Part shown: piece after piece, positions 6,509 to 53,999 of the stretch | How positions within the stretch are numbered: position 1 is the stretch's first letter | How the letters are laid out: every line of letters begins with the position of its first letter | NCBI GenBank assembly: GCA_965248195.1 | Contig: CBDFIQ010000002.1 | Span: 2,944,001-3,008,000, forward strand | DNA length: 64,000 nt | Source of the DNA: Longimicrobiales bacterium | GTDB taxonomy: Bacteria; Gemmatimonadota; Gemmatimonadetes; Longimicrobiales; Gaopeijiaceae | Direction of reading: 5' to 3' | Notes under the pieces: model-generated | What the model was told of the DNA's origin: nothing | The model's input: the letters and a program-made list of their open reading frames with translations, nothing else | Database searches by the model: none | Made by a program: the position numbers and the translations under genes

Positions 6509-8224
6509 ATGGAAGAGCACCATTTACAGATGAATCGCCAGCGTTTCCTCGCTTGCTTCTCCACCGCGGGCGTCGGCTCGACGTTGCTCCCGGGGGCGCT
6601 CGCAGCGATCGCTCAGGACGCCCAAGTGGTCACCATCGAGATGTTGGAGGCCGCAGAGCAGATCGCCGGTATCGCCTTCTCACGCGACGAGAAGGAGAGG
6701 ATCCTCGAGCGGCTGAACGGAGACCGCAGTCCGCTCCCCGCCTTCGACATCCTGAGAGCCGCGGAGCTCGGGAACGACACGCAGCCCGCGATCGTCTTCA
6801 ATCCCTTGCCACCGGGGAAAGTCGCCCCCACCGAACGCAGGCCGTTGAGACGAAGCGAGATCGAGGCGTCGACGCCCGCGACGGAAGAGGACCTCGCGTT
6901 CCTCCCGGTAACCCACCTTTCGAGGCTCATCGAGACACGCCAGATCACATCCACTGAGTTGACCGAGCTCTACCTGGCCCGACTCAAGCGGTACGACCCG
7001 CAGCTGTTCTGCGTGGTCAACCTCACCGAGGATCTCGCCCGTAGACAAGCCAGACGTGCGGACGAGGAAATCGCGGCCGGGACGTACCGCGGCCCGCTGC
7101 ACGGCATCCCCTATGGCCTGAAGGACCTGTTTGCCGTGCGCGGGACCAAGACGACGTGGGGAATGACTCCGTTCAGGGATCGGGTCATCGATGTCGACGC
7201 CACGGTATATGAGAGGCTGACGCAGGCTGGCGCGGTCTTGATCGCGAAGCTCTCGACCGGCGCGCTGGCTGTGAGCGCCCGGTGGTACGGCGGCTTGACC
7301 CGAAACCCGTGGAACACCGAACAAGACGCGTCGGGCTCATCGGCCGGGCCGGGCGCTGCGACAGCCGCCGGTCTCGTGGGATTCTCGATCGGAACGGACA
7401 CGGGGGGCTCGGTCATCGGCCCCTCGACTCGTAATGGAATCACTGGGATGCGCCCGACGTTCGGCAGAGTCAGCCGTTACGGCGGTATGGTGCTAGCCTG
7501 GACGCAGGACACGGTTGGGCCGATGTGCCGTTCAGCAGAGGACTGCGCGCTGGTCTTCGATGCCGTGTACGGCCCCGATGGTCGCGATAACTCGGTCCTC
7601 GACGTGCCGTTCAATTGGGACGCACTCGGCGACGTGTCGCAGCTCAGGGTCGGCTATCTGCGTAGCGAATTCGAAGGTGATATCACGCCTGACCTTCGGG
7701 GCGACGAGCGGCGGCAGCGCCAAAACCGACGGAACGCCGAGGAGGCCCTCCTTCTGATCCGGTCGTTCGGTATCGATGTCGTCCCGTTCGATCTGCCCGA
7801 TGTCGATGTCGAAACGATCGACTTCCTACGATACGTGGAAACCGCAGCCGCGTTCTACGACATCACCATGAGGGGACAACTCACGGAGACCGAGGAGGGC
7901 CCCGAGCAGAGCGAGAGGCCGAACGAGATACGCGCAGCCCACTTCACGCCCGCCGTCGAGTACATCCAGGGCAATCGACAGCGGATGCGCATCATGCAGC
8001 AGATGGATGAGGCGATGGGCGATCTGGACCTGTTCCTCGGGTCCGACCGTCGTCTCACCAACCGCTTGGGCCATCCCCAGGTCAGCCTGCCTAGTGGATT
8101 CCACGAGGGAACGCCGACGGCGCTCCACCTCACAGGGAAGCTGTTCGGTGAACCGGAGGTGCTGCTCCTCGCTCATGCGATCCAGGCGGAGACGCAACAC
8201 CATCTCCAGCGTCCACCGCTCTGA
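6509..8224 (+). CDS. Amidase signature family protein, exported
   Basis: GPLHGIPYGLKD, GSSAG, IGTDTGGS, RPTFGRVSR. Confidence 0.9.
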   Translation: MEEHHLQMNRQRFLACFSTAGVGSTLLPGALAAIAQDAQVVTIEMLEAAEQIAGIAFSRDEKERILERLNGDRSPLPAFDILRAAELGNDTQPAIVFNPLPPGKVAPTERRPLRRSEIEASTPATEEDLAFLPVTHLSRLIETRQITSTELTELYLARLKRYDPQLFCVVNLTEDLARRQARRADEEIAAGTYRGPLHGIPYGLKDLFAVRGTKTTWGMTPFRDRVIDVDATVYERLTQAGAVLIAKLSTGALAVSARWYGGLTRNPWNTEQDASGSSAGPGAATAAGLVGFSIGTDTGGSVIGPSTRNGITGMRPTFGRVSRYGGMVLAWTQDTVGPMCRSAEDCALVFDAVYGPDGRDNSVLDVPFNWDALGDVSQLRVGYLRSEFEGDITPDLRGDERRQRQNRRNAEEALLLIRSFGIDVVPFDLPDVDVETIDFLRYVETAAAFYDITMRGQLTETEEGPEQSERPNEIRAAHFTPAVEYIQGNRQRMRIMQQMDEAMGDLDLFLGSDRRLTNRLGHPQVSLPSGFHEGTPTALHLTGKLFGEPEVLLLAHAIQAETQHHLQRPPL

Positions 8225-8265
8225 CGGGTTTGGACCTGGCCCTCACGTTACAAGTTCCTATACGT
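8222..8265 (+). mobile_element. Partial copy of the IS91-like oriIS/promoter repeat
   Basis: tgacgggtttggacctggccctcacgtt is identical to 9991-10018; followed by ttcctatacgt, which may instead belong to a gene fragment. Confidence 0.55.
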
Positions 8266-8499
8266 GTGGCTGGACCTAAAGCTCGAAGGTCGGGAGCCCG
8301 CAAAGTATCTCGGATGTCTCTACTGGCTCCCCAACCCCTTCCTGCCCTTCATCTGGTGGAGGGTCGCGCTGCCAAGCGATCACCCCGATGTGCAGGTGGA
8401 ACTGTTGGAGGACTGAGTTTCGCCGTTTGCCATCACCCGGTCCAGCGTGACAGATTCCGATACACAAAGCGTCGCTTTTAGCTTCATCAAGGTCACCGC

Positions 8500-9948
8500 A
8501 TGACCGAACCAGATCGTCAGACCCAGTTTCAGGCAGAGTTAGCCTCAGAGTTCGTGATCGTCCGCTCACTGGGTGAGGGTTCCGTGGCGCACGTGTACCT
8601 TGCCCGGGAGAAGGCCCTCGAGCGTTTGGTCGCGATCAAGGTCATGAAGTCGCACGTGGCCGAGGATGAGACCGCCCGGAAGCGATTCGCCCGGGAAGCT
8701 CGATCCGCCGCGAAGATCCACCATCGCAACGTGGCGACCGTGTATCGGGTCGGCTCCCTCGAGGACGAGACGCCTTTCATCGTCATGGAGTACATCGAAG
8801 GGCGCAACCTCGCAGATACGCTCAAGGCAGAGGGAGTCATGACTCTGGAGCAAGCGTCTCATACGCTGGGTCAGCTTGCCTCGGCGTTGGCGGCCGCGCA
8901 CGAGAACGGAATCGTCCACCGCGATGTGAAGCCGGAGAACGTCGTGCGTGAGAAGGACTCGAACCGAATCGTGCTCATGGACTTTGGGCTCGTAGGTATC
9001 CTGGAGACGGGCTCCGACCCGGTTACGCATCTTACACAAGCTGGACAGCTGCTTGGCGATGCCCGGTACCTGAGTCCCGAACAGTTGCTCGGTAACGGGG
9101 TCACGGATGAATCGGATGTGTACGCCCTGGGCGTCATAGGCTATGAGCTTCTTACGCTCAAGACTCCGTATGAGGGGAGCACGAGCGCCCACCTGGTCAT
9201 GGCGCGCCTGAGGGAAGAGCCGGTTCCGCTGGCCCAGCTCCGGCCCGACATGGATCCCGATCTCGCAGAACTGTTGGCACGGTGCCTTTCCAAGAATCCT
9301 CATCATCGGCCTCCGGCATCCGAGGTCGCCAAAGCCTTGGTGCGCATCACGGAAGCGCTCGCAGCAGGCCTGCGTAGGGAGTCCGACTCAACGCCACCGC
9401 CGCGAACGACACGACGACTCTCGGCCATCATGTTCACGGACATGGTAGGCTTTACGGCCCTGATGCAGGACGACGAACATCGGGCAAAGAGCGTTCGCGA
9501 CCGGCATCGTAGCGCCCTCCGCAAGTCGATCGAAACGCACGGCGGCGAGATCGTGCAGTTCTACGGAGACGGGACCCTCAGCATCTTCGGAAGCGCCGTC
9601 GAGGGAGTCTCGTCCGCGGTCGCTGTCCAACAGGTACTCCAGCAGGAGCCTCCGATCCCCGTTCGAATTGGACTCCACATCGGCGACATCAACCGGGACG
9701 AGGACGGCGTCTACGGGGACGGTGTCAACGTTGCCGCTCGCATCCAGGGGCTCTCGGTTCCCGGTGCGGTCATGATCTCGGAGAAAGTCTTCGACGAGAT
9801 CAAGAATCACCCTCGGCTGCCCGTGACCGAACTCGGTGAGTTCGATCTGAAGAACGTGCGCCGGCCGGTCCGGGTTTTCGCGATCACGGCGCCGGGGCTC
9901 GTCGTTCCCGATGCCGAGTCCATGGCCGGCCGGACCGAACTGGCCTAG
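8500..9948 (+). CDS. Ser/Thr protein kinase fused to a class III adenylate/guanylate cyclase domain
   Basis: VAIK, HRDVKPEN, DFG, YLSPEQ, then AIMFTDMVGFT, GDG, RIGLHIGD, VNVAARIQ. Confidence 0.9.
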   Translation: MTEPDRQTQFQAELASEFVIVRSLGEGSVAHVYLAREKALERLVAIKVMKSHVAEDETARKRFAREARSAAKIHHRNVATVYRVGSLEDETPFIVMEYIEGRNLADTLKAEGVMTLEQASHTLGQLASALAAAHENGIVHRDVKPENVVREKDSNRIVLMDFGLVGILETGSDPVTHLTQAGQLLGDARYLSPEQLLGNGVTDESDVYALGVIGYELLTLKTPYEGSTSAHLVMARLREEPVPLAQLRPDMDPDLAELLARCLSKNPHHRPPASEVAKALVRITEALAAGLRRESDSTPPPRTTRRLSAIMFTDMVGFTALMQDDEHRAKSVRDRHRSALRKSIETHGGEIVQFYGDGTLSIFGSAVEGVSSAVAVQQVLQQEPPIPVRIGLHIGDINRDEDGVYGDGVNVAARIQGLSVPGAVMISEKVFDEIKNHPRLPVTELGEFDLKNVRRPVRVFAITAPGLVVPDAESMAGRTELA

Positions 9949-10054
9949 TCCCTCCGCCTCACCCTCCAACCCTGGCGGGCGTCCGCAAATTGACGGGTTT
10001 GGACCTGGCCCTCACGTTGTCCCGACCCGCCAAAGGGCTTTTGGTTTAACTGTC
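9943..10054 (+). mobile_element. IS91/ISCR-like oriIS end with outward promoter, no transposase
   Basis: Near-identical to 47635-47740; TTGACG 9990, CACGTT 10013; ccaaagggcttttgg hairpin; ends actgtc|CTTG. Confidence 0.65.
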
Positions 10055-10120
10055 CTTGGCGTATACTCTCGGCGGACGGGAGGCGAGTTTCGGGTAACCT
10101 AATCTGCGAAGGAGAGACCC

Positions 10121-11359
10121 ATGGCTTCGAAACCACCTGATCGAAGGGTATTCCTAAAACGCGGGGCCGCGTTGGCCGGTGGTTTGACCTTGGGAGCGGT
10201 AGAGCCCGCTATGCGCCAGACACCAGCATCTGGACAGTCTGTCGAGGGACAGTCCCAAGAGGTCCCGGACTATTCAAGTGAGGAGCTGATCGCCTATGGT
10301 CAACGCTCCCGTTTCGTGACGTCGGTACGCATACCGCACGGCGGCAGGCCCTCACCCGATGCCTTTGGTCTCGTCTTTCATACGGCAACTCCGCTTCAGG
10401 ATTCGGTGGGGGTGATCACGCCATCCGCGCTCCACTTCTCAAACACCACGCGCGGCGCGTTCATTCCGGACATCGATCCCCAGACGCATCGTCTCATGGT
10501 CCACGGCATGGTGGACCGTCCGCTGATCTTCACCATGGAGGAGTTGAAGCGTCTCCCTTCCGTGACCCGCCTTCATTTCGTCGAGTGCGCGGGGAACCGC
10601 TCGAACAGCCGGCAGACGACAGTGCAGGAAACGCACGGGGCGACCAGCTGCGCCGAATGGACCGGAGTGCTCCTGTCTACGCTGCTCGAGGAGGCGGGCG
10701 TGCAAGACGGAGCGCCCTGGATCGTGGCGGAAGGGGTGGAGGAAGTGAAAGGGGCGTCGAGCATTCCGATGACGAAGGCTATGGACGACTGTCTCGTGTG
10801 CTACGGCATGAACGGCGAGGCCGTACGTCCCCAGCAAGGCTTCCCGCTGCGGCTGCTGGTTCCCGGCTTCGAAGGAATCTTTAACGTGAAGTGGCTGAGG
10901 CGAATCAAGGTGGTGGACCGGTACTACATGACCTACAACGACTACGGGCATCTTCGTCAGGACCCCGACGACGCTGCGCTGGGTTACCAGATCGGACCGA
11001 AATCGGTCATCACGTTTCCGTCCGGGGGACAACAGCTGCCCGGCCGCGGATTTTACGAGGTCAGCGGCTTGGCCTGGTCCGGTGGGGGGGCCGTTAGCAG
11101 GGTGGAAGTATCCACCGACGGTGGCGACAGCTGGATAGACGCCGAAATTCGCGGGACCCCACATCCCATGGCGCATACCCGGTTCACCTTCAACTGGACT
11201 TGGGACGGAACAGAGGCCGAGCTCCAGTCGCGCTGCACGGACGAGCTGGGCCAAGTTCAACCGGATCGACGGGTGCTGGGCCGTGTGAAAGGCCAGGACA
11301 ATTCCATTCAGCCGTGGAGGATCGCGAGCGACGGGAGCGTGCACAATGCGATTTCTTAG
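10121..11359 (+). CDS. soxC: Molybdopterin sulfite dehydrogenase, SoxC/SorA-like
   Basis: Tat motif DRRVFLK; ECAGN, CAEWTGV, QGFPLRL, VKWLRRI, GLAWSG. Confidence 0.8.
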   Translation: MASKPPDRRVFLKRGAALAGGLTLGAVEPAMRQTPASGQSVEGQSQEVPDYSSEELIAYGQRSRFVTSVRIPHGGRPSPDAFGLVFHTATPLQDSVGVITPSALHFSNTTRGAFIPDIDPQTHRLMVHGMVDRPLIFTMEELKRLPSVTRLHFVECAGNRSNSRQTTVQETHGATSCAEWTGVLLSTLLEEAGVQDGAPWIVAEGVEEVKGASSIPMTKAMDDCLVCYGMNGEAVRPQQGFPLRLLVPGFEGIFNVKWLRRIKVVDRYYMTYNDYGHLRQDPDDAALGYQIGPKSVITFPSGGQQLPGRGFYEVSGLAWSGGGAVSRVEVSTDGGDSWIDAEIRGTPHPMAHTRFTFNWTWDGTEAELQSRCTDELGQVQPDRRVLGRVKGQDNSIQPWRIASDGSVHNAIS

Positions 11360-11909
11360 GCTTCTCCCGTTTCTGATGCTCCTGGGGAGCTCCGTGCAAG
11401 CGCAGACGTCCACTTATGGTGTGGGAAGGACCCCGAGCGCAGAAGAGATCCGTGCCTGGGATATCTCCATCAGTCCTACGGGAGAGGAACTCCCGCCGGG
11501 GAGCGGAACGGCCGAGGAAGGCGCGCTGGTCTATCAGGTGAAAGCGTGCGCGGCATGCCACGGAGCGACAGGGACAGGGGGGCTCGCTCCCAGGTTGGTA
11601 AAACGCGAAGCGGGACCAGATGTCGACCCATGGGAATTGGGGCGAATACTGCCGATCCGCGCGCCGTACGCGACGACCGTATGGGATTACATCAATCGCG
11701 GCATGCCTCTCAATGGAGAAGGAACCCTCACCGCCGATGAGGTCTACGCGCTGACGGCCTATCTGCTCTCCATAAACGATCTCATCGCGGAGGACGAGGT
11801 AATGGACGCCGAGAGTCTGCCGATGGTGGAGATGCCGAATCGTGATAACTGGGCTCCCCTACCGGATTGGCAGCCCGGAATGCCAAGGCTTGCAGGTTAC
11901 CCCCACTGA
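11346..11909 (+). CDS. soxD: Cytochrome c, SoxD-like
   Basis: CAACH heme motif; WDYINRGMP, EVYALTAYLL, MPNR; overlaps soxC. Confidence 0.75.
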   Translation: MRFLRLLPFLMLLGSSVQAQTSTYGVGRTPSAEEIRAWDISISPTGEELPPGSGTAEEGALVYQVKACAACHGATGTGGLAPRLVKREAGPDVDPWELGRILPIRAPYATTVWDYINRGMPLNGEGTLTADEVYALTAYLLSINDLIAEDEVMDAESLPMVEMPNRDNWAPLPDWQPGMPRLAGYPH

Positions 11910-11962
11910 GGTACGCGTCGTAACGCTTCTAAGGGCCGAACTGAAACAAGAGCCCACCGCAG

Positions 11963-12415
11963 CTACCTGAGGTTCGAGTAGTTGCTGGAGCTCATCCAGT
12001 AGGCCTCGATGGAGAGCGACACGTCATACTTCGCTCGGAGCGCAGCCCAGTCCGGGTCGGAGGCGAACCCCGCCCAGACTTCGTCCCGATGGGCGCGGTC
12101 GCGATAGGCGAGCATCCAGACCAGCGTGTTCGGATCGTCGAGACGCTGCCACACGGCGATGACATCGGCGCCGTGCTTCTCGAAGATCGCCACCTCTTGC
12201 TCGCGGAAGCGCTGATGCAGCACGTTGATGTCGCCACGCTCGTTGGAAGCCGTGTACATCCGGAGCTCGAAACAGCGCGCGTCGGAGCCCACGTTGGCGG
12301 AGAGCTCCGCCGGCAGCTGGCCGGCCGGGCCGCACGCATCAGGCGGGCCCTGGGCTTGTGCCGTCCCGGCGAAAGTGAAGCCCATGACGACGGCGGTGAG
12401 GATCGCGTTTTTCAT
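11963..12415 (-). CDS. NIPSNAP family protein, exported
   Basis: FELRMY, LHQRF, FEKHG, LVWMLAY, FASDPDW. Confidence 0.8.
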   Translation of the reverse strand: MKNAILTAVVMGFTFAGTAQAQGPPDACGPAGQLPAELSANVGSDARCFELRMYTASNERGDINVLHQRFREQEVAIFEKHGADVIAVWQRLDDPNTLVWMLAYRDRAHRDEVWAGFASDPDWAALRAKYDVSLSIEAYWMSSSNYSNLR

Positions 12416-12507
12416 GCCAATCTCCCTCTGCAATGGTTGGCGGTTCGAGTGTCCAGACGACGGGTCAGGACATGAGCCACATCTCGTTCGTCGCACGGTG
12501 GCGACCG

Positions 12508-12544
12508 GTTCGGGTACACATCAGAGTTCGTGTACACATCAGAG
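12508..12544. repeat. 18-bp-period direct repeat in a divergent intergenic region
   Basis: gttcgggtacacatcaga / gttcgtgtacacatcaga. Confidence 0.55.
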
Positions 12545-12614
12545 AGGACATTATAGGGAAGTCGAGGGCGCGCCTGAAAGGGCGAGGCCTTGGTGTCGAG
12601 GCGATTGCCACGAG

Positions 12615-12678
12615 TTGACTGACTCGGCCCTGCCTCTCACGTTGTCCGGATCGCCTGACGGCCGTTGTTTTTCCTATC
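12615..12678 (+). mobile_element. Diverged IS91-like oriIS end with promoter
   Basis: TTGACT-N17-CACGTT, then gttgtttttcctatc|CTTC. Confidence 0.6.
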
Positions 12679-12719
12679 CTTCCTAGCGCCTGGTGTATGG
12701 CCGACAGGGAGCAAGGGAC

Positions 12720-14540
12720 ATGGTACCAGCGAAAAAGCAGCGAATCGTGACTTGGCTTCTCCCTACCGTCGCCATCGTTTTGGCTGGGTGTGGCGCCAAG
12801 GAAGGCGGGCAGGCCGGACCGGCCTCCTGGGAAGACGACCTGGAGCCCATCACCGCCGCCGACTGGGACCGCGGAAAGGCCGCGCATCTTCTGGAAAGGG
12901 CAGGTTTCGGAGGAACGCCCGAGGAGATCGATCGCCTCGCGGCGATGAGTCCGGAGGAGGCGGTCGGGTGGTTCGTGGACTACGCGTCGATTCAAGACGC
13001 TCTTCCCTCGTTCGACGCGTCACCGATCTGGGACGCTGGCATGGACCCCTTCCCAAAGAGTCGGGCCGAGGCGGTGCGGATAGCCCGCGAAACAGGCGAG
13101 GCGATGGGAGTCCCGGTTCTTCCCGAGGGTGAATCAAGAGCACTCCAGCCGGTCGTGAACAAGTTCTTCTTCGGTTTGCGCTCGAACGCCTACGAGACGC
13201 AACGGTTGGCCCTGTGGTGGGGCGAGCGGATGCTGCGTACCCAGCGGCCGCTCGAGGAGAAGCTGACCCTGTTCTGGCATGGTCACTTTGCCACCGGGAA
13301 CAGCAAAGTCCGCGACACGCGGATGATGGAGCGCCAGCACTTGATGCTTCGCGCCAACGCCAGGGGTAACTTCGGGGACCTATTGCGGGGGATCCTGAGG
13401 GATCCAGCGATGCTCGTCTATCTCGACAACGGGGAGAACGTCCGGGACCACCCCAACGAGAACTTTGGCCGGGAGCTGCTGGAGTTGTTCACGATGGGAG
13501 TGGGCAACTACACGGAGCATGACATCCGTGAAGCCTCGCGCGCGTTCACCGGCTGGACCAACGACGTGCTCGAGTTCGAGTTCGATGAGACCCAGCACGA
13601 CATGGGCGTGAAGACCTTCCAGGGTCAGACGGGGCCGTTCGATGGGACCGACATCATTGACATCATCCTCGCCCAAGAGCCGACGGCGGAGTTCATTGCC
13701 GGCAAGCTCTACCGGTACTTCGTGCGAGAGGAGCTGAGTGATCAGACACGCGCGTCCCTTGGGGCGACGTTCCGCGACGCAGGTTACGAACTGGAGCCGC
13801 TGCTGACCCGCATCTTCCTGTCGCGGGATTTCTACAGCCCCACGTCGTACGCGACACAGATAAAGAGCCCGGTGCAGCTGGTCGTCTCGACCTATCGCAA
13901 GCTCGGTCTCGCCCAGATGCCGACGATCCCGGATTTCAACCGGCTGACGTCTCGCCTCGGTCAATCGTTGTTCAACCCGCCAAACGTGGCAGGATGGGCC
14001 GGCGGGCGAACTTGGATCACCCCAGGATCGTTGCTGCAGAGGGGCAATCTGTTCCGCACAATTCTGTTCCCAGACGTCGACTCGTTCCGGGCGCCGGATC
14101 GGGTCCTCCCCGGAATCTATGCGAGCGTCGGGCGCCGAATCGAGGCCGGGATGAGCATCACTGCCGCCACTCAAGAGGGTGACGCAGAATCGAGCATGCT
14201 GGCCGACCGTGACGAGGATTTTAATACGCGCTACGGTGGCTACATGGGGTACGTCATGGCGTTCGAGCGGCTCAGGCTGGTGCCCCGACATACACCCGAC
14301 CTCGACCTCGTCGCCATGGTCGACGAGGCGGGCGCCAGCAGTGCCGCCGACGTCGTCGACTACTTCATCGCACGGTTTTTGCGCCTCGAGTTGCAGCAGA
14401 CCGACCGTGAGGCCCTCGTCGGTTTCCTGCGGGACGAATTAGGCGGAGACCGGATCGGGCGCGCCGACGCGCAGACCGAATCTGCTCTGCGTTCCTTGTT
14501 GTATCTCGTGCTGAGCACACCGGAGTATCAGTTGGCGTAG
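12720..14540 (+). CDS. DUF1800 family protein
   Basis: AAHLLERAGFG, LFWHGHFAT, YLDN, PNENFGRELLELFTMG, PPNVAGW, STPEYQL. Confidence 0.9.
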   Translation: MVPAKKQRIVTWLLPTVAIVLAGCGAKEGGQAGPASWEDDLEPITAADWDRGKAAHLLERAGFGGTPEEIDRLAAMSPEEAVGWFVDYASIQDALPSFDASPIWDAGMDPFPKSRAEAVRIARETGEAMGVPVLPEGESRALQPVVNKFFFGLRSNAYETQRLALWWGERMLRTQRPLEEKLTLFWHGHFATGNSKVRDTRMMERQHLMLRANARGNFGDLLRGILRDPAMLVYLDNGENVRDHPNENFGRELLELFTMGVGNYTEHDIREASRAFTGWTNDVLEFEFDETQHDMGVKTFQGQTGPFDGTDIIDIILAQEPTAEFIAGKLYRYFVREELSDQTRASLGATFRDAGYELEPLLTRIFLSRDFYSPTSYATQIKSPVQLVVSTYRKLGLAQMPTIPDFNRLTSRLGQSLFNPPNVAGWAGGRTWITPGSLLQRGNLFRTILFPDVDSFRAPDRVLPGIYASVGRRIEAGMSITAATQEGDAESSMLADRDEDFNTRYGGYMGYVMAFERLRLVPRHTPDLDLVAMVDEAGASSAADVVDYFIARFLRLELQQTDREALVGFLRDELGGDRIGRADAQTESALRSLLYLVLSTPEYQLA

Positions 14541-14587
14541 CGGAGAGCGAGACACCCTGAATCCTTGGGAGAAACTGGAGCAATCCC

Positions 14588-15838
14588 ATGCTTATCAAGT
14601 GCAACTGCTCGCGGCGTGATTTCATCCGCCGGGGATGGTACGGTCTTGGTCTCAGCGCCGGTCTTCCGGTGATTTTGAACCGGACGACTCAGGCGCTATC
14701 CGCGCAAGCGCTACAAGGCACGAGCATGGAGGCCCACCCCGAACGAATCCTCGTGGTGGTAGAGCTGTCCGGCGGTAACGATGGTCTCAACACCGTCGTG
14801 CCGTTCGGCGATGACGAGTACTATCGCGTTCGCCCGAATCTGGGCATCGCGGAGCACGACGTCATCAAGGTCGCGGATGGGCTCGGCTTCCATCCGGCGC
14901 TCGTCGGGTTCGAGCGGCTCTACAAGGACGGGAACATGGCCGTCGTGCACGGCTGTGGATACGAGAATCCCAGTCTGTCCCACTTTTCGTCGATGGGCTT
15001 CTTGCACACCGGTGTTCCGAACGGGGGTGAGCAACTGGGTTGGATGGGGCGATTGGCCGATGGCGTCTACGACCACGATGCCCAAGGCAACATCATCGTC
15101 AACATTGGGAACCGGCAGTCTCTCGCGGTGCAAAGCCGCGACCACCCGCCGCTCGTGTTCAATGACCCGAATGCACTCAAACGCGATGCCAACGAGGCCG
15201 AGCACGCCGTGTTCGAGACCCTCGACCGCGCCAAGGCGACCGATAACAGAAGCTTGGACTTCCTCTCGGCGACGGCTGAGAACGCTGCGGGTGCGGGCGA
15301 GGTCGTGCGCCGCGCTGCTGCGTCGTATCAGACACCGATCGACTACGGCATCGGTGGTCTATCCGGACCCCTTCGGCGTGTCGCCTCCTTGATCGCGGCG
15401 GAGCTCCCCACGCGGTTGTACTACGTCACCTATGCGGGAAACTCCTTCGACACCCACGTGCACCAGGCCGACCCCCATGCGCGATTGCTGGCTTACACTG
15501 CCGACGCCGTTCGGGGATTCACCGAAGACCTCAAGCGGATTGGTCGGGCCGACGACGTGGCCGTGATGATGTTCACCGAGTTCGGTCGCCGCGTCGAAGA
15601 GAACGCCAGTCTCGGAACCGACCACGGCACGGCCACTCCGATGTTCATCTTCGGCACCGGGGTAGAAGGTGGGATGTACAGTCGCCACCCAAGCCTCACG
15701 GACCTGGACGACGGGAACCTGAAGATGACGACAGACTTCCGTCGCGTGTACGCCACGATGATCGAGGAGTGGCTGGGTTATGCGGACACGGGGTCCATAC
15801 TCAAGGGCGACTTCCAGCCGCTGGGTGTCTTCGGCTGA
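14588..15838 (+). CDS. DUF1501 family protein with Tat signal
   Basis: SRRDFI; LSGGNDGLN, FDTH, TEFGRR, GTDHG, DFRRVYAT. Confidence 0.9.
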   Translation: MLIKCNCSRRDFIRRGWYGLGLSAGLPVILNRTTQALSAQALQGTSMEAHPERILVVVELSGGNDGLNTVVPFGDDEYYRVRPNLGIAEHDVIKVADGLGFHPALVGFERLYKDGNMAVVHGCGYENPSLSHFSSMGFLHTGVPNGGEQLGWMGRLADGVYDHDAQGNIIVNIGNRQSLAVQSRDHPPLVFNDPNALKRDANEAEHAVFETLDRAKATDNRSLDFLSATAENAAGAGEVVRRAAASYQTPIDYGIGGLSGPLRRVASLIAAELPTRLYYVTYAGNSFDTHVHQADPHARLLAYTADAVRGFTEDLKRIGRADDVAVMMFTEFGRRVEENASLGTDHGTATPMFIFGTGVEGGMYSRHPSLTDLDDGNLKMTTDFRRVYATMIEEWLGYADTGSILKGDFQPLGVFG

Positions 15839-15869
15839 GTCGCAGGCGGTTGTGAGGACGGTGAACGGC

Positions 15870-18205: not shown

Positions 18206-18210
18206 AAAGT
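18190..18210. promoter_or_regulatory. Putative operator copy overlapping the uppS start
   Basis: aagtacttcgtgtcataaagt matches 19261-19281 at 18 of 21 positions. Confidence 0.55.
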
Positions 18211-18232
18211 TTCTCCGGAAAAAAAACACCGC

Positions 18233-18619
18233 CTACTCTCGTACGAGCTCGATCAATGCCTCCATGTGGTCCAGATATCGCTGGAGCGCCTGTCGGCCGA
18301 TCTCCGTGAGGCGATAGTCCGTCCGCGGAATCCGACCCTTGAAAGACTTTTGTATCTCGACGTAGCCAGCTTCCTCTAGCCGCCTAGCGTGAACGCTGAG
18401 GTTCCCGTCCGAGGTGTCGAGACGCTCCTTGAGTTCGTTGAAGCTGAGAGATTCCTCCACCGCGAGTGCGCTTACGATCCCTAGGCGGACACGCACATGG
18501 ATGATCGGGTCGAGTGCGACAGGATTGGTCTTCCCGGCTTGTACATCGATGCTCACGGTCGATCCCTTGACCGGGGCCAGGTGCGGGGCCTTGCGGCGGG
18601 CCCGTGCTCCCTCAGCCAC
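18233..18619 (-). CDS. Winged-helix transcriptional regulator (MarR/ArsR-like, HTH_34)
   Basis: LDPIIHVRVRLGI, LSFNELK, SDGNLSVH, PRTDYRLT; start uncertain. Confidence 0.85.
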   Translation of the reverse strand: MAEGARARRKAPHLAPVKGSTVSIDVQAGKTNPVALDPIIHVRVRLGIVSALAVEESLSFNELKERLDTSDGNLSVHARRLEEAGYVEIQKSFKGRIPRTDYRLTEIGRQALQRYLDHMEALIELVRE

Positions 18620-19223: not shown

Positions 19224-19260
19224 GATGAAGACAAATGTGGTCCGCGGCGTTGCGGTCGTC

Positions 19261-35222: not shown

Positions 35223-35236
35223 CCCATGACAGAGCG

Positions 35237-43832: not shown

Positions 43833-44113
43833 TGGGGCGTGTCGTGGGGCGTCACGCCCCACTTTCGACTCCTAACTCAGCGCAACCAAAAAGCCGGAAG
43901 CCCAGATACTTCCTGGACTCCCGGCCTAATGAGCCGGGTGGGTCTCGAACCCACGACCTACGGATTAAAAGTTCGATAGCAGCATATACGCAGAGTGCCC
44001 TTCAGGTAGCCTAAGTAGCTGCGAGTTAGGGTGTTAGGAGGTCGGTTGTTCTCCCGAGTGTTCTCTAGATTCGACCAGTTTCGGGGAGTTTGGGGTCTCG
44101 GTTAGGGTACCAA
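43833..44113 (-). repeat. att-junction repeat B: arm, tRNA-Lys 3' half (43930-43975), terminator and second arm
   Basis: Ungapped match to copies A and C; tggggcgtgtcgtggggcgt direct repeat beyond the terminator. Confidence 0.88.
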
Positions 44114-45343: not shown

Positions 45344-45354
45344 AGAAACCTCGC

Positions 45355-46984: not shown

Positions 46985-47243
46985 TGTGGCCGGAGTGAAG
47001 CTCAAGTAGGGGATTGATTATCGAGTACGACGAAGGGGACGAGGTGGCGATCCTGTCGCCGTTAGGCATCGCAGAGGTTGAGGAACACATTCTTCCTTCC
47101 TTGATCGCGTGACGTGTGGGTGTCTGGGTTGTCGTCCAACGTCGCGCTCCCGCTCGCGCCCTTATAGAGCGAGCGCTCGACGCGTTCAGATACTCCGACT
47201 TCCCCTCCCATCCGCTGAGTCCCCACCACGCAACCTGAGTTTT

Positions 47244-47523
47244 TGGGGTACCACTTGGGGTCCCATAGGCCCATTTTCGGCCCTGACTCGCGGACACCAA
47301 AAAGCCGGAAGCCCGCCTACCTAAGGGCTTCCGGCCCAGTGAGCCGGGTGGGTCTCGAACCCACGACCTACGGATTAAAAGTCCGATAGCAGCATATACG
47401 CAGAGTGCCCACGAGGTAGCCTAAGTTGTGTCAAGTTAGGGTGTTAGGGGGTCAGTTGTTCTCTCTAGGGGTCCTGAGATACGACCAGTTTCGGGGAGTT
47501 TGGGGTCCCGGTTGGGGTCCCAA
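47244..47523 (-). repeat. att-junction repeat C: arm, tRNA-Lys 3' half (47340-47385), terminator and second arm
   Basis: Perfect hairpin gccggaagccc/gggcttccggc with T-tail on the minus strand; tggggtaccacttggggtccc and tggggtcccggttggggtccc on either side. Confidence 0.9.
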
Positions 47524-47634
47524 AACTGTCTGAAACCATCAGTGTCGTTCTACTCGACGGTATCAGGCCTATACCGACTCACCCATCGCCGCCCATCCAC
47601 ACATCCAGTTGTCCCATTCGAGCATTTGCTAAAT

Positions 47635-47740
47635 GCCTGGCCGCCCGCCTCACCCTCCAACCCTGGCGGCCGGCCGCAAATTGACGGGTTTGGACCTCGC
47701 ACTCACGTTGTCCCAACCCGCCAAAGGGCTTTTGCTTTTC
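47635..47740 (+). mobile_element. IS91-like oriIS end with promoter
   Basis: Near-identical to 9943-10054; TTGACG 47681, CACGTT 47704; ends ttttc|CTTC. Confidence 0.65.
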
Positions 47741-47742
47741 CT

Positions 47743-48193
47743 TCTATGGGGAGTCGGGCCCTGGCCGCGGCGCTCACCGAAATCGGCCGAGACATCTCGG
47801 AGCCGCTCTTCGGCGAAGTGATCTTCGCCGCACCCGACATCGATGCGCGGGAGTTTCGCAGTATCGTCGCCCCGGCGATCGTCGGGACGGCCGAGCGCAT
47901 CACGCTGTACGCGTCCTCGAAGGACCGGGCGCTGCGTGTGTCACAGGCCCTCCACGACTATCCACGGGCCGGGGACTCCGGCGAGGGGCTCAACCGTCCT
48001 CGAAGGAATCGAGACGAGCGACGCGTCGGTCATCGACACGAGCTTGCTCGGGCACTCCTACTTCGCGGATGCGACCTAGCTGGTCAGAGATCTGTTGTCG
48101 GTCATCCTCGAAGCCCTTCCGCCCTCCGATCGTTCTCTGGAGGCCGATGTCAAAGCGGGTATGACGTACTGGCGATTCGGAGTGAGTGGGTAG
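47743..48193 (+). pseudogene. 5'-truncated, frameshifted alpha/beta hydrolase (DUF900-like)
   Basis: SMGSR, FAAPDID, TLYASSKDRAL, and GHSYF in another frame; internal stop. Confidence 0.75.
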
Positions 48194-48390
48194 AGTCCGC
48201 TCGAGGCACTGTCGGATCAGCTCGAGCACACGGTCGGCTGACGACCAATTTCTTGTTGCATCTGCGCTCCCCCTCTTCTATTATGGCCTGTCGTACCCTG
48301 GCGCGGCTGTGACCCCCCCCCACTGAGATTTCCGCGTTCCAGGACCTGCGCTCCATGCAAGACGGCCTCAGGACGACGGATCTACAGCCT

Positions 48391-49914
48391 ATGGCGTTCA
48401 TCGACGGTTTCGGACACGACGTCTTCATCAGCTACGCCCATGTCGACGCCCCCGACCCGTACCATCCCGAGAGCTGGATGGACCGGTTTGACGCGGCGTT
48501 GCAGATCCAGCTAGAACAAAGACTCAACAAGCTGGCGTTTTCGATGTGGCGGGACGACCGTCGGCTGATGCCGAACTTCGAATTCGACGAGGAAATCGCC
48601 CAGAGCATCGACAGCAGCGCCGTCTTGCTGGTACTGCTCTCGCCCGGGTACGTCGATTCGCCCTATTGCCGGATGGAACTCGAGCGCTTCGTGAAGACGG
48701 CGAAGGCGTCCTCCCTCGGGCTCAAGGTCGATAGCGGTTCGCGAATTTTCTTGGTCAAGCTCGATGAGTTGCGACCGGACCAAGCTCAACCGCCCGTGCT
48801 CCAGACCATGGACGGAGTCCAACTCTTCGAGAGGGACAAGAAGAATCTACCACGGAGGTTGCGTGACGGTGACCTCTACCAAGAAGCTGTCGATAGGCTC
48901 GCGGTCCAACTCGCGACCTTTCTGATGCAGATGAAGCAAGCGACGCCGACTCGGAAAGTTTCGACTCGGCCGGTAGCCGGCCTGACGCCGGGCTCCGGGG
49001 GTCCGACGACGGTCTTCCTCGGACATGCGACGTCCGATCTCGAGGAGCAGCGCGAACAACTTGCGGAGACGCTGACGCAGTATGGGGTCACTGTACTGCC
49101 GGATATCGACCCCGCTGGCTTGGATCTGGACTCGCTGACGGACGCGATCGCGAAGCACTGTTCGGCTGCGACGATCTCATTCCACCTTACGGGCAGGAGA
49201 CACGGCGAGCCCCTCTACGGAGACGAGCTCAACCCGACGCTGCCGGTCCTGGACTATGAGGTTGCTGTCGACACGGCCGACTCCCGCAGAAAGAGTCAGG
49301 CCGAGCTGGGGGAATTGGACTCCAACGCGCCTGCCTCCGTGATTGTGTGGACGCCGGGCGAAGTAATCGCCAGCCTGGGGGAAGTGGACGATGCACAGAA
49401 GCAGTTCCTCAGGGAGATCAAGAGACAGAAGAGCGCGAGCGTCGAGTGGTTGCAGCAAGGCATGGAAAACCTAATCGACATCTCGTTCAAGCGGCTCGGC
49501 GTCGAGCGCGAGCAGCCCACAACGGATGCGGTCTCCGACAGCGCCTATGTGCTGGTTTCGTGCAAGCCCGAGGCCAAGCACCATAACGACTTTCGGAAGA
49601 TCCTGGATTACCTGCTCGACCATGGGGTGGACTACGAGTTCGACATCAACAGCGACGTGTCCTTCCAGGAGCATGCTTCACTCTACGATGGCTTATTGAT
49701 CCTCTACCTCGAGTCCGGCGAAACCTGGGTGAAGGCCCGAGCGCGGGAGGCCTCCCAGTGTATCCGGCGACGCAAGGGCCTGGTCGCCGGCATTTACGAC
49801 GGTCCCCCACCCGAGAAACCCGAGTTCGGCTTTGAATCGAGCACGGTCCCGGTCTACGTCGGGCGCGACGGCTTCGATGGCCATGTGCTCGACAATTTCC
49901 TGGAAAGGTTCTAG
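48391..49914 (+). CDS. TIR-domain protein with additional TIR/DUF4062-like modules
   Basis: HDVFISYAHVD, WRD, LLSPGYVDSPYCRMEL; later VFLGHATSDLEEQREQL. Confidence 0.85.
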   Translation: MAFIDGFGHDVFISYAHVDAPDPYHPESWMDRFDAALQIQLEQRLNKLAFSMWRDDRRLMPNFEFDEEIAQSIDSSAVLLVLLSPGYVDSPYCRMELERFVKTAKASSLGLKVDSGSRIFLVKLDELRPDQAQPPVLQTMDGVQLFERDKKNLPRRLRDGDLYQEAVDRLAVQLATFLMQMKQATPTRKVSTRPVAGLTPGSGGPTTVFLGHATSDLEEQREQLAETLTQYGVTVLPDIDPAGLDLDSLTDAIAKHCSAATISFHLTGRRHGEPLYGDELNPTLPVLDYEVAVDTADSRRKSQAELGELDSNAPASVIVWTPGEVIASLGEVDDAQKQFLREIKRQKSASVEWLQQGMENLIDISFKRLGVEREQPTTDAVSDSAYVLVSCKPEAKHHNDFRKILDYLLDHGVDYEFDINSDVSFQEHASLYDGLLILYLESGETWVKARAREASQCIRRRKGLVAGIYDGPPPEKPEFGFESSTVPVYVGRDGFDGHVLDNFLERF

Positions 49915-49925
49915 GGGACACCGTC

Positions 49926-50648
49926 GTGACGGATGGCGACGCACTCCAGGAAGCGGCAGATCGGCGCTTGAACCCCTTCCCGGGGATTCGGCCGTACCAG
50001 CCCGACGAGTCCCACCTCTTCTTCGGTCGCGACGAGCACGTACACGAACTCCTACGCACGATGCGGCGCAATCGTTTTGTCGCGGTGCTCGGGAATTCGG
50101 GTACGGGAAAATCGTCTATTGTCCGAGCCGGGGTGCTTCCACCGCTCGAGTCGGGCTTCATGGTGCCCGAGGCGGGGCTTTGGCGCATGGCGATCATGCA
50201 GCCGGGGAGGTCGGACCCGATCCGGGCGTTGGCGGATGCCATCAGCAGCGACAAGAAGCGCGGCTGGGGGCTCGGGAAGTCCCGCGACGAGGTGCTTCGA
50301 GAATTGAGGCGCGGGGGTCTCGGCCTCATCAATGTCGCTCAGCAAGCGCCTGTCAGACCGGGGAGCCGGTTTCTCATACTCGTCGATCAATTCGAAGAAC
50401 TCTTCGGGTTCATGGACGCACCCGGAGACTTCAGAGGAAGCGACGAAGCCCGTGCGTTTATCCGGCTGTTGATCGAGGCCACGACGAACTCGAGCCTGCC
50501 GATCTACGTCGTGATGACGATGCGCTCGGAGTTTCTGGGCCACTGTGCGGCCCTGCCGGGCCTTACGGAGATTATCAACCGTAGCCTCTATCTCGTTCCG
50601 GAGCTGACTCGGGACCAGCTTCGACAAGTCATCGAGGGCCCGGTACAC
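49926..50648 (+). pseudogene. STAND NTPase (nSTAND1-like) truncated by an IS3
   Basis: NPFPGIRPY, LFFGRD, GNSGTGKSS, LVDQFEELF, TMRSEF. Confidence 0.85.
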
Positions 50649-50706
50649 TGGAGTGAACCCCTGAGGGTGGACAACGAGAGTTGGTTGGATTGACCAGTCA
50701 GTGGCT

Positions 50707-51860: not shown

Positions 51861-51998
51861 CGAACCTCCCGAGTGATTACGGAAGGTCAATCCATCGCCC
51901 CCTCTGTGTCCACTTTGTAGGGTTCACTCCAAGACCTGTGCAGCTTTCGATGGCCGTTGACACGGGGAACATAATGGGGGAGGGAGGCCGTGGGAAAC

Positions 51999-52026
51999 TT
52001 GACATTTCATGGGCCCTTTCTAGGTT
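51999..52026 (+). promoter_or_regulatory. Putative sigma70 promoter of the tRNA pair
   Basis: TTGACA-N16-TAGGTT upstream of the IS1595 insertion site. Confidence 0.4.
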
Positions 52027-52132
52027 CCAGCGCACAATTGAAGGGTGTTTCGGAAACGTTTTGTGTAGGTTTGGGTAGGGATCCGAGACACCCTTTTTCT
52101 TGGGGGATTATATCCAATCGTAACCAAACCCC

Positions 52133-52161
52133 TTGACTTTGGCCAGTCATAATGTTACTAT
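52133..52161 (+). promoter_or_regulatory. IS1595 transposase promoter
   Basis: TTGACT-N17-TACTAT; AGGAG RBS before the ATG at 52190. Confidence 0.55.
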
Positions 52162-52189
52162 TAGTCTGTAAATTAGACTAGGAGAAACG

Positions 52190-52827
52190 ATGGCTAAGTC
52201 AGGACCCGGTAAGCACTTCCGAAAGGGGCTCTCACTCATTCAGGTTATGCGGATGTTCCCAGACGATGCGACGGCAGAGCGGTGGATCGCTCAGTGCCGG
52301 TGGGGCGGCGAGCCCGCTTGCCCGCATTGCGGGAGCGATAACGTCCAGGTAGGCGCGAAGCATCCGAGCCAGCCCTATCGTTGCCGCGAGAAGGGTTGCC
52401 GGAAGTTCTTCAGCGTGAAGACCGACACGGCAATGGCCGGGAGCAACCTGGGCTGTCAGACTTGGGCCGTTGCTACGTACTTGCTCGCTACGGGTCTCAA
52501 GGGCCAGGCGTCGATGAAGCTTCACCGCGACCTAGATATCGGACAGAAGGCCGCATGGTTCCTGGCGCACCGCCTACGCGAGACGTGGGAGGCGCAGCAA
52601 GCCCCTTTCACAGCAAGCCCCTTTCAAGGGGCCGGTGGAAGTAGATGAGACCTACATCGGCGGCTTGGAGAAGAACAAGCACGTAGGCAAGAAGGCGAAC
52701 CTGGGCCGGGGCGCGAGTGGCAAGGCCGCCGTGGCAGGCGCGAAGGATCGGGCGACGGGCAGGGTGGCCGCCCGCGTCGTCCACGCGACCGACAGGCAGA
52801 CGCTGCAAGGCTTTGTACGGGGCCAGA
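52190..52827 (+). pseudogene. IS1595 transposase, frameshifted and truncated
   Basis: Zn-ribbon CPHCGS..YRC..C, FSVKT, VEVDETYIGG; 16-bp duplication at 52595-52626. Confidence 0.9.
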
Positions 52828-53237
52828 TAGGAATTGAAGTAAAGATACTAGCCAAGGCGATGATTAAGCAGATCGGTCGCGTTCAAAACGACTTGCGGGA
52901 TCAGGTTGCCCAGTTTCAGCGTGGTATTGGAACGCCCATCTGTGTCGGCATTGTTGGCGTTAATCACGCTGACTACTGCATAAGCTACGAGGGAGAACAG
53001 GCTTGGCCAACGGATGGAGTAAGGCACAAGCACCCAATCCAAGAGGCGGAAATTGCAGAGCAGCGACTGCGAGAAGAAGTGGGCACCAAGTTTGACGAGC
53101 TCTTGTTTCTCCGCTACAAGGCGACGAATGATGAGCCGTACCCGTTCGAGTGGGCTAGCTACGCCGACACTTTTCAGGACTACGGTGCCGCCTTAACTCG
53201 CATCTCTCGCGCTTATGACACAAGGTTTGGGCCGTGA
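52828..53237 (+). pseudogene. C-terminal part of a passenger gene, possibly a PD-(D/E)XK nuclease, fused to the transposase
   Basis: Abrupt switch to IGIEVKILAKAMIKQ with lower GC. Confidence 0.45.
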
Positions 53238-53449
53238 AAGAACACCAACAGGACCTACCCCAGGCGGAGCCGCCCATGAAAGACGATGCAAAGGCACCAT
53301 CCAAGCGCGGCCGCCCGGTCGAGCACTCAATGCCGGACCCCATACCGGACACTCCCGAGAACATCATGAAGGCGTTCCTGAAGACGCCGCCGCGCAAGCG
53401 TGAGGAATGGAAGTTCGTGCAGGAACGGGACAAGAAACAGGCCCCATAG
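53234..53449 (+). CDS. Small hypothetical protein at the IS1595 end
   Basis: KRGRP...PIPDTPENIMKAFLKTPP; overlaps the upstream stop (GTGA). Confidence 0.55.
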   Translation: MKEHQQDLPQAEPPMKDDAKAPSKRGRPVEHSMPDPIPDTPENIMKAFLKTPPRKREEWKFVQERDKKQAP

Positions 53450-53491
53450 CGCCGGGGCCGTGGTTACGATTGGATATAATCCCCTTTTCTT

Positions 53492-53564
<73 letters not shown>

Positions 53565-53568
53565 TTGG

Positions 53569-53613
53569 AAGAGGGGTGAGCCCGTCACTCAGGACGTGCA
53601 GCCCCTCTTTTTT
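53569..53613 (+). terminator. Hairpin with T-run between the tRNAs
   Basis: aagagggg...cccctctttttt. Confidence 0.45.
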
Positions 53614-53614
53614 A

Positions 53615-53686
53615 GGCGCCGTAGCCAAGCGGTAAGGCAGAGGCCTGCAAAGCCTTTATTCCCCGGTTCGAATCCGGGCGACGCCT
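53615..53686 (+). tRNA. tRNA-Cys(GCA)
   Basis: agccaagcggtaaggc D-arm, ctGCAaa loop, ggttcgaatcc; one C-A mismatch in the acceptor stem. Confidence 0.92.
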
Positions 53687-53887
53687 CTAGGGTTTCGGGA
53701 GTTATCGACATCGGCGCGAATTTGGCCACCGTAATCTACCCGTGTCACGGCGTTGTCGAATGCACGGCGCAGAGACCCTATACGCGTCCCAGCTTCGGCT
53801 CGTCGCCGTCGACAATCATGGTGGAATACCCAAGGCGACCGTTTCCCCGCGTAGGTCCGCAGTCGGTACGCGGCTGAGTTTCGGTTC

Positions 53888-53999
53888 GCCTGAGCCCCCG
53901 CTTGACCCCCCGAACGCTGGCGTGAGGCCGCAACTTGACCCGTTTGGCACTGCCCCTCACGTTATCCCGACCCGTCAAAGGGCTTTTGGTTTACCTATC
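53888..53999 (+). mobile_element. IS91-like oriIS end with promoter
   Basis: TTGACC-N17-CACGTT; caaagggcttttggtttacctatc|CTCA. Confidence 0.65.

Follow-up and report, generated by a model that had tools for sequence, protein, structure and literature searches.

Seven repeats in the window and their ends

The window analyzed here is a stretch of 64,000 nucleotides from a Longimicrobiales bacterium (G000:C2:2944001-3008000), whose genome of 4.86 Mb is assembled in two contigs and is 91.8% complete. Genomes are labeled G (G000 being the source genome), loci L, contigs C, and sequencing runs X. Seven related repeats were found in the window, every one on the + strand, and they are almost beyond doubt the origin ends (oriIS), devoid of transposase, of an ISCR-type element of the IS91 family of Longimicrobiales. 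We refer to them as stumps. They were described by comparison with locus L121, in which the remnant of an IS91-family transposase gene keeps its C-terminal codons and leads into a 212-bp untranslated region (UTR) closed by the motif of the stumps.

The first stump (8222-8249) consists only of the 28 bp of the predicted promoter part, matching the L121 UTR in 28/28 positions. It begins within the stop codon of an amidase gene, the terminal part is absent, and it carries a -35-like box, CTGACG (8221-8226), and a -10 box, CACGTT (8244-8249). It is followed by the 3′ fragment of an unnamed gene (8249-8398, +), which is 78-83% identical to four loci of other genomes of the genus (congeners; L087-L090) and has no Pfam family. 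The second stump (9956-10057) has the full end CTGTC-CTT, 96% identity to the L121 UTR over 102 bp, and boxes at 9990-9995 (-35) and 10013-10018 (-10); after it comes a soxC/soxD-like pair (10121-11909, +; Oxidored_molyb and cytochrome c in Pfam) with 82-89% DNA identity in six congeners. An older stump (12607-12681; 54/76 positions of the UTR; boxes at 12615-12620 and 12638-12643) lies 38 bp ahead of a DUF1800-DUF1501 operon. At 20173-20194 only the terminal 22 bp are left, heading a gamma-glutamyltranspeptidase (GGT) gene, and at 33385-33421 the terminal 37 bp (30/37 positions of the UTR), heading a 5.1-kb block (33422-38555). The longest stump (47578-47745; 94% over 157 bp of the UTR; boxes at 47681-47686 and 47704-47709) has a variant end, TTCCTTCT, and the last one (53897-54002; 82% over 105 bp of the UTR; boxes at 53935-53940 and 53958-53963) ends in CCTATC-CTC. 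Directly after these two ends there are, as an earlier note on this DNA had described, pieces from the middle of genes: a DUF900 hydrolase fragment (47743-48190, +), 95% identical to residues 235-318 of P0065, and a Gfo/Idh/MocA fragment (54003-54303, +), 59% identical to residues 220-288 of P0002. Both are 5′-truncated and frameshifted, starting at about residue 235 of 383 and residue 220 of 321, and the N-terminal halves of both genes were absent from a whole-genome search.

A profile constructed from 24 congener copies only recovered six of the seven stumps (E 3e-21 to 0.005, the top match being 53897-54002 with 3e-21), missed the one at 20194, and gave no match in the reversed genome. With a matrix of the terminal 30 bp the stump at 20194 scored 19.7 bits; this matrix had 27 matches genome-wide versus 8 in the reversed genome. 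The genome scan that the earlier note had proposed was carried out with a model built from sequence only and gave 32 copies in G000, on both strands, so the repeats are not peculiar to this region. There were 4-28 copies in each of 11/11 congeners and, outside the genus, 4 copies in 3/29 other genomes. The titles of the related loci were Longimicrobiales or Gemmatimonadota. Copies reach ~165 bp (47578-47745), beyond the ~110 bp previously given as their maximum. For the analyses below we considered 171 stumps. This genome contributed 33, the congeners 121 out of 162 matches, two other genera 3, the genome scan 3, and metagenomes 11; 48 matches stayed outside the set, as did one scan match that duplicated a G007 locus. 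The stump junctions are not an assembly artefact, and the objection that they might coincide with assembly breaks fails: the one at 10057 is common to six congeners, a contig of run X22 spans 12681 (12367-12989), and the open reading frame (ORF) across 54002 is supported by other assemblies.

The true ends were located three bases further right than first noted, at 10057, 12681, 20194, 33421, and 54002. Among 45 ends, one per downstream cluster plus the transposase-linked ends, positions +1 to +3 after the hexamer were conserved (C in 42/45, T in 38/45) and no bias was seen from +4 to +7. The near-identical elements L042 and L043 lie at different sites; they agree through three bases past the hexamer and then differ. 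The element ends in CCTATC plus 3 nt and has no fixed target. Since conservation extends over the three bases past the hexamer and stops there, the CTTC, CTTG, or CTCA tetramer that had been taken for the target is mostly element sequence: it comprises the last three bases of the element and one more. Its match to the target arose from the register and strand that had been used. IS91 ends, in plasmid records, in CCTATC-GAT, then CAAG or GAAC, and IS1294 in CCTATA-CGT, then GAAC; one of these tetramers follows IS91/IS1294 in 5/5 records with flank and none of the 45 ends studied here. ISCR1 ends in CCTATA-CCC, followed by variable bases. The IS91-type targets are given as CTTG/GTTC in the available text of PMC13181058, which is the opposite strand, so the target reads CAAG/GAAC on the strand of the stump and transposase. 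The downstream tetramer was thus random, the outcome that the earlier note itself had named as contrary to its proposal.

The longest copy had been placed in the wrong register and ends at 47745, not 47740; its variant end (TTCCTTCT or TACCTTCT) was also found behind transposases in L035, L304, and L308. Near 8263 the CCTATAC is coding sequence of the fragment 8249-8398, conserved in four congeners, and the stump stops at 8249. The seven related + strand repeats are real.

Origin of the ends and the DNA that stays with them

Three window copies are 94-100% identical to the L121 UTR, and the stump profile matched a second transposase locus, L295. The same terminal motif was present in 13 transposase-linked ends, 174-250 bp past the match in 12 of them, the one at +517 being doubtful. 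Other Longimicrobiales transposases have this ending ~230 bp past the stop codon, and likewise ISCR1, ISCR2, and a further plasmid ISCR-type element. The motif consists of a purine run, a T-rich tract, and then CCTAT plus 4 nt, and it aligns in the records of ISCR1, ISCR2, IS91, and IS1294 and in the 45 ends. The protein of L016, an intact relative that is not the exact partner of the window stumps, matches PF04986 (Y2_Tnp) and PF14319 (Zn_Tnp_IS91). In the alignment H203/H205 and Y294 are invariant and R stands in place of the first tyrosine, as in ISCR1/2; the identity is 35-38% to ISCRs and 21% to IS91/IS1294. As the mark of ISCR against IS91 proper we take an HUH motif with a single tyrosine where IS91 has YxxxY. 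Considering the L121 UTR match, the ending shared by transposases and ISCRs, and the features of L016, the oriIS identification is correct and the type is ISCR. IS91/IS1294 proper was rejected as the family, given the 0/45 CAAG/GAAC and the single tyrosine of the relative transposase.

With IS91 and IS1294 the stump family shares the HUH transposase family (PF04986, PF14319), the terminal nonamer CCTAT plus 4 nt, and the lack of target duplication; unlike it, those elements are followed by CAAG/GAAC and have two catalytic-motif tyrosines. The end AAAAGG...TT...CCTAT plus 4 nt, ~230 bp past the stop codon, is common to ISCR1 and the present family, and neither has a fixed tetramer after it (GTTA, CATA, CTGG, and TTTA/CGGT at a doubled end in five records of ISCR1). 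L121, the nearest element to the young stumps of the window (94-96%), is in a metagenome-assembled genome titled Dehalococcoidia, either a cross-phylum transfer or a binning error.

The earlier note had thus recognized IS91/ISCR-type ends without transposase, at module junctions and with no target duplication seen, and no Y2 transposase was found in the window. A transposase family with the motif at the 3′ end, which it had proposed to look for, exists in relatives (L121, L295), but in the genus only fragments were found. G000 has nine fragmentary matches to an ISCR-type transposase, the longest covering residues 203-479; congeners have fragments or none, and near full-length genes were found in G024, G054, G064, G066, G069, G075, and G105 (7/121 genomes searched). 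No complete ISCR (transposase, terIS terminus, and oriIS) was found in the congeners or in G000, at 91.8% completeness. An intact IS91-family gene at C1:105431, behind a tyrosine recombinase, was discarded as partner, since it has a different end that leads into GTTAG junctions and no match to the stump profile.

The rolling-circle copying of IS91 starts at oriIS and runs through the transposase side (available text of PMC13181058 and PMC5737581), so that cargo would be expected upstream of the end. The earlier note had proposed such units, upstream cargo plus oriIS, copied by a rolling-circle transposase acting in trans, like non-autonomous Helitrons, and stacked at a tetramer target. We compared the flanks of the stumps all against all, requiring at least 200 bp of similarity, a threshold that misses the short link to attachment (att) arms described below. 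Downstream DNA was shared by 461 pairs, upstream DNA by 19, and both by 15, with 421 pairs downstream only versus 4 upstream only. Since one family of 28 inflates the pairs, clusters are the fairer count: 96/171 stumps fell in 22 downstream clusters, 18 of them with at least two upstream contexts, and 24/171 in 10 upstream clusters, 3 of them with at least two downstream contexts.

Individual junctions behave in the same manner. The soxC junction (10057) is kept in 7/7 close orthologues, and in G001, G004, G005, G006, G007, and G009 it stands behind different upstream DNA; what remains of the stump in these congeners measures ~155, 100, 62, 39, 27, and 15 bp. G006 carries the 20194 end and its GGT gene at 95% identity, preceded by different upstream DNA, and contigs of runs X18 and X23, from two other studies, join this end to yet another upstream piece. 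Among runs X18, X22, and X23 there are 81 and 183 additional letters at 8249 and 20178. The block 33422-38555 is 97.5% identical in G011, the identity beginning at 33421, the last base of the stump. Upstream of that junction G011 has a 5′ fragment of the same ISCR transposase, so the two genomes keep different ISCR remains there. The upstream neighbours of the window stumps occur in congeners with no stump after them: amidase (G003), NIPSNAP (G005/G006/G007), GSDH (G006/G011), and cupin (G011). An observation on the other side is that the amidase gene and the 28-bp stump piece share one contig of run X22. The stumps are linked to the downstream gene and not to the upstream DNA, and we infer that something other than rolling-circle read-through from the stump has reshuffled the modules of stump plus gene, both inside species and between them.

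In favour of accretion by rolling circle, the ends are genuine oriIS and 82 bp of the IS91 right end are enough when the transposase is given in trans (available text of PMC13181058). Near pairs of stumps are co-oriented in 13/13 cases in G000 (two back-to-back pairs less than 200 bp apart not being counted), and young, near-identical ends precede at least five different sequences. Read-through capture could also account for two pieces: the extra tRNA-Gly/Cys segment that lies 200 bp ahead of the 54002 stump, and an asnS-like 3′ piece upstream of a remnant at C2:600402. At L136 (G024:C156:2351-4908) two near-identical direct-repeat stumps, 2.5 kb apart, flank two genes that look like what we take to be an AbiE-type toxin-antitoxin pair, the best candidate for capture from oriIS to oriIS; the arrangement resembles the ISCR28 sandwich described in the available text of bioRxiv 2025.01.22.634252. 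On the other hand, the tetramer target is missing in all 45 ends, the pairs are 4 upstream only versus 421 downstream only, and the upstream neighbours exist in congeners without a following stump. Furthermore, where the shared soxC, GGT, and 33422-38555 modules end, the core profile detects no further stump (terminal-only stumps could escape it), 72/171 stumps reach no further than model position 70 and are thus without the cleavage end, and the 12 genomes of the genus yielded no intact cognate transposase. Upstream cargo moving together with oriIS is not supported by the flank comparison, apart from a short exception, att arm plus stump in 6/171. No circle joint of oriIS appeared among the best 15 of 60 joints in the contigs of four runs, searched for window positions 2600-22200. 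Accretion of Helitron-like units in trans is thus mostly unsupported, and we regard it as improbable for the region as a whole; the G024 sandwich, the tRNA-Gly/Cys segment, and the asnS-like piece leave room for occasional captures. Non-autonomous Helitrons are rolling-circle ends without coding capacity, next to gene fragments, in which capture puts the cargo inside the element. Helitron-like capture would put the cargo upstream of the end, whereas the comparative data tie the stumps to downstream DNA. The feature proposed at this locus is therefore real and its family known, and the mechanism is mostly not the one first proposed.

Past activity of the ISCR is certain, since the young ends precede at least five sequences and the 47745 and 54002 ends run into the middle of genes, as an insertion followed by loss of the upstream side would give. 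The co-orientation that had been remarked holds for the window and the genome, but in congeners only 9/17 near pairs are co-oriented, so it is not a rule of the family. Replication-strand bias was set aside as its cause: 10/35 stumps agree with the local GC skew, which is weak, and the copies are clustered.

Promoter-like boxes in the stumps

The conserved core of the stumps is TTGAC(C/G), 17 bp, and CACGTT, which is similar to a sigma70 promoter. The boxes are present in 157/171 stumps, with a spacer of 17 in 149, and in five of the seven of the window; the spacer is inherited from the element and by itself is no evidence of selection. In host upstream regions with the stumps masked, TTGAC plus nAnnnT at spacer 17/18 was found in 16/144 and 16/143, versus 5-9 of ~144 at other spacings, and 17/50 host -10 boxes of that shape start with C. 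A co-oriented gene with a Shine-Dalgarno sequence and ATG (SD+ATG) began within 160 bp downstream of 90/153 stumps, versus 29/151 leftward, 333/3000 at random sites, and 366/2056 after stop codons; the p value of forward against leftward starts is ~1e-12 if the stumps are taken as independent, which they are not. After all seven window stumps the next long ORF is on the + strand, 38 to ~610 bp away.

Taking into account this conservation and the gene geometry, from which the activity is predicted, we consider that the stumps have probably been retained as outward sigma70-type promoters heading shuffled modules, with a probability of roughly two in three. Each stump would be a spot where the ori end of an ISCR came to face a gene or to lie inside it. 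Loss of the transposase body would then have proceeded from its 5′ end, stopping in many cases shortly before the -35 box, and many stumps may persist by giving the downstream gene an outward sigma70-type promoter (TTGAC., 17 bp, CACGTT), in the manner of the POUT promoters of ISCR1. In the window the modules headed by stumps would have gathered in a variable region of tRNA-Lys att type, with the youngest subfamily just inside an att arm. According to the available text of PMC6218425, the oriIS region of ISCR1 has two working outward promoters (POUT), and a co-oriented gene follows in 84% of 1127 sequences. Both systems thus have a conserved left side, a variable downstream region, mostly co-oriented genes, and outward sigma70 promoters in oriIS, predicted in our case. 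Unlike in ISCR1, the transposase is gone here and 22-165 bp are left, each chromosome of this environmental genus carries 4-32 copies, the genes downstream have metabolic or unknown functions instead of conferring resistance, and the predicted promoter has a different sequence.

The stumps could also be neutral debris, decaying insertion scars that stay beside the downstream gene for no other reason than that they were inserted there, with the inherited boxes idle. Insertion by itself would give linkage to the downstream gene; of the window stumps, three point into gene fragments and two have no boxes; boxes were lost in 4/7 soxC orthologues; and the ascertainment favours copies bearing boxes. 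The pattern of decay argues against this reading. In 10 downstream clusters (68 sequences), each descending from one fusion, mismatches amounted to 2/340 (0.6%) in the -35 box and 22/408 (5.4%) in the -10 box, that is, 24/748 for the boxes versus 167/1156 (14.4%) for the spacer; they were 250/1360 (18.4%) in the terminal part and 545/1360 (40%) further upstream. Similarity to the UTR falls sharply just 5′ of the -35 box, with less than 10 bp of UTR before it in 79/151 stumps, and forward gene starts are in threefold excess over leftward ones. Neutral decay is in our opinion a rather unlikely account of the family as a whole.

Several observations weigh against retention as promoters. The conservation test is partly circular, as the profile weights the boxes and copies without the -35 box were excluded. 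When a family of 344-aa proteins was found by its protein, both boxes (strict pattern) were present in 16/45 members and in 16/30 of those with the shared leader, and 3/7 soxC orthologues keep both; retention of the boxes is therefore common and not universal. Two of the seven window stumps have no promoter and three face gene fragments, 28/171 stumps head one paralogous family, so that the counts are not independent, and in G000 alone the SD+ATG test was passed by 13/33. The matching pattern was present in only 3/13 transposase-linked ends of other genera, so the promoter is a feature of a subfamily. A generic sigma70 scan of 9900-12800 gave no sites, because CACGTT is far from TATAAT. The 24 runs available consisted of contigs, which cannot show transcript starts, and an X1 RNA contig beginning at 12669, near a start predicted at ~12650, was set aside for that reason.

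Alternatively, the core could be kept as a hairpin or as a site to which a host factor or a transposase binds. An imperfect inverted partner of the -35 box is present (TTGACGGG / CCCGTCAA), with pairing in 75% of cells, and subterminal palindromes are described in oriIS ends of the IS91 family (available text of PMC13181058). Against this, covariation was absent (1 two-sided change versus 1.8 in shuffles, a score reached by 380/500 shuffles), RNAalifold gave no consensus pairs, and variation is seen in the right arm but in neither the left arm nor the unpaired -10 box. We rejected a conserved hairpin, and a retained structure or protein-binding site in place of a promoter seems very improbable.

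The 344-aa proteins start with a signal-peptide-like N-terminus and match no Pfam family; they occur in 10/12 genomes, with as many as 34 paralogues in one genome (L144:1432-2466; G000:C1:249056, C2:821701, C2:836852). The leader derived from the stump is found in only one part of the family. A single origin of the predicted promoter there was considered and set aside: on the tree the label requires 8 changes (13.3 when shuffled), and it is absent from all of 15 remoter members and from an outgroup of 2. Outward-facing stump pairs, back to back and less than 200 bp apart, with the look of divergent promoters, were seen at C1:250251/250305 and C2:821459/821534 of G000 and at G004:C90:6350/6510. 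If the stumps do act as promoters, a single mobile element would have supplied dozens of accessory genes with promoters, one clade of a large paralogous family among them, and the genus would offer a testable case of bacterial regulatory exaptation.

The tRNA-Lys variable region and its other elements

The window has three duplicated 3′ halves of tRNA-Lys with att arms, plus two lone arms. The first duplicated half of tRNA-Lys(TTT) and its arm (41345-41563, -) were recognized as a repeat and by the match to the intact tRNA-Lys at C2:264881, and so was the second junction (43889-44112, -). The third (47200-47522, -; tRNA half at 47304) has arms on both sides and stands directly before the longest stump, and an arm of the same type (20064-20102, +) lies 70 bp before the 20194 stump. 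The intact tRNA-Lys and two more copies are at C2:264881-275957, where the adjoining IS3 is identical to the window IS3 at 50649; this identical IS3 suggests an inversion. Congeners have the same att array with homologues of several window modules in other orders. Tandem tRNA-Lys(TTT) att junctions bound modules of 2.5-3.4 kb without integrase (also in L108, L110-L112, L115-L117, and L119), and similar arrays are present in G004, G005, G006, G007, and G011, with modules swapped at 95-98% identity. Copies of IS3, IS256, and IS1595 also cut the window modules, and together with the att array they are a simpler agent for the accretion of the window than rolling circle.

Six of the 171 stumps, all of the young subfamily, as well as the window stump at 20194, directly follow a tRNA-Lys att core or arm, with at least four downstream regions among them. 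The order att core or arm and then stump was observed at window 47200-47745 and 20064-20194 and in G007, G009, L123, L125, and L131; the G009 unit runs arm, stump, soxC/D, att. Among 16 loci with the 5′ side, judged by eye, L035, L041, L285, L293, and L297 have att-like direct repeats or tRNA ends ahead of the transposase gene. As a point against the proposed gathering of modules by att sites, a motif search turned up no integrase for the tRNA-Lys att; its matches were XerC/D-like genes and a 5-copy 360-aa recombinase (one copy 20 kb from tRNA-Lys), none tied to att.

In GIsul2 the order att, CR, ori, variable genes, att is described for CR2 (ISCR2/ISVsa3), the island integrase moves the unit, and rcr2 is dispensable (available text of PMC9376610). 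The likeness lies in an ISCR or its remnant placed inside att sites, as in the window, G007, G009, L123, L125, and L131 with att and then stump; the differences are the att at tRNA-Lys instead of guaA, the reduction of the CR to a stump, no integrase found beside the array, and a putative mobility of the unit here. A tentative extension would be that the genus domesticated the ISCR oriIS end as a standard portable promoter, within an integron-like platform at tRNA-Lys (att arm, oriIS promoter, variable genes), and that species trade modules headed by stumps, 95-98% identical, through an integrase or ISCR transposase acting in trans. If so, it would be an environmental, integron-free counterpart of gene capture and expression by ISCR1/CR2.

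To our knowledge, ISCR elements are known almost only from resistance plasmids. The genus offers ~190 chromosomal oriIS stumps with datable fusions, which inform on the position of the end, the lack of a tetramer target, and the neighbour retained, for elements whose transposition, according to the available text of PMC6218425 and PMC9376610, has not been demonstrated experimentally. The locus adds a genus-wide promoter signal and the att-arm layout, and it cautions that stacked oriIS ends are no proof of rolling-circle accretion. Searches of the open literature listed no publication on the stump family, the promoter signal, or the att-arm layout, subscription papers being outside this coverage.

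A second IS91-family element, formed by a tyrosine recombinase and a 402-aa YxxxY transposase, was present at G000:C1:105030-107300 and C1:217600-219400, both copies interrupted by IS256, and in L011, L012, L018, L024, L029, L031, L033, and L034. In G005 the 6 copies examined of 7 all end in GTTAG, a purine, and a gene, like integron cassette junctions. The 3′ end of an asnS-like gene (presumably asnS, from its protein sequence) is in our reading a second att-like hot spot. In G011 (L101, C4:455000-470000) the 5′ end of an ISCR lies at that 3′ end, and G000 has a duplicated asnS-like 3′ piece before an ISCR remnant elsewhere and a different 3.5-kb insert at the native site, the G000 loci concerned being C2:600402-600815, C2:1184788, and C2:2759298.

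The remaining features of the window are as follows. A second tRNA-Gly/tRNA-Cys segment with its upstream region (51963-53688, +) is split by an IS1595-family element (52103-53484) with 24-bp inverted repeats; it is 98-99% identical to G006 versus 91-96% to the other copy of its own genome at C2:1468316, and was apparently acquired from a congener and split later. Downstream, 54003-63024 resembles a sugar-catabolism block (Gfo/Idh/MocA, aminotransferase III, PQQ dehydrogenase, SDR, UxuA, and PfkB). Its portion 54302-63024 had no close match in the 11 congeners, and the named homologues of its first fragment are from Planctomycetota. An acetyl-CoA synthetase-like gene (22216-25504) is split by an IS3-family element with at least 8 identical genomic copies, and the IS256-family element at 30083-31465 has ~100 near-identical copies genome-wide. 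A possible defence or signalling module (48355-50693) consists of a TIR_2 gene and, after it, an nSTAND1 NTPase gene interrupted by the IS3 at 50649. The low-complexity tract at 939-1020 is (GTTG)n-like, and elsewhere in the genome, at C1:1071378-1073597, 17 tRNA genes are grouped within 2.2 kb.

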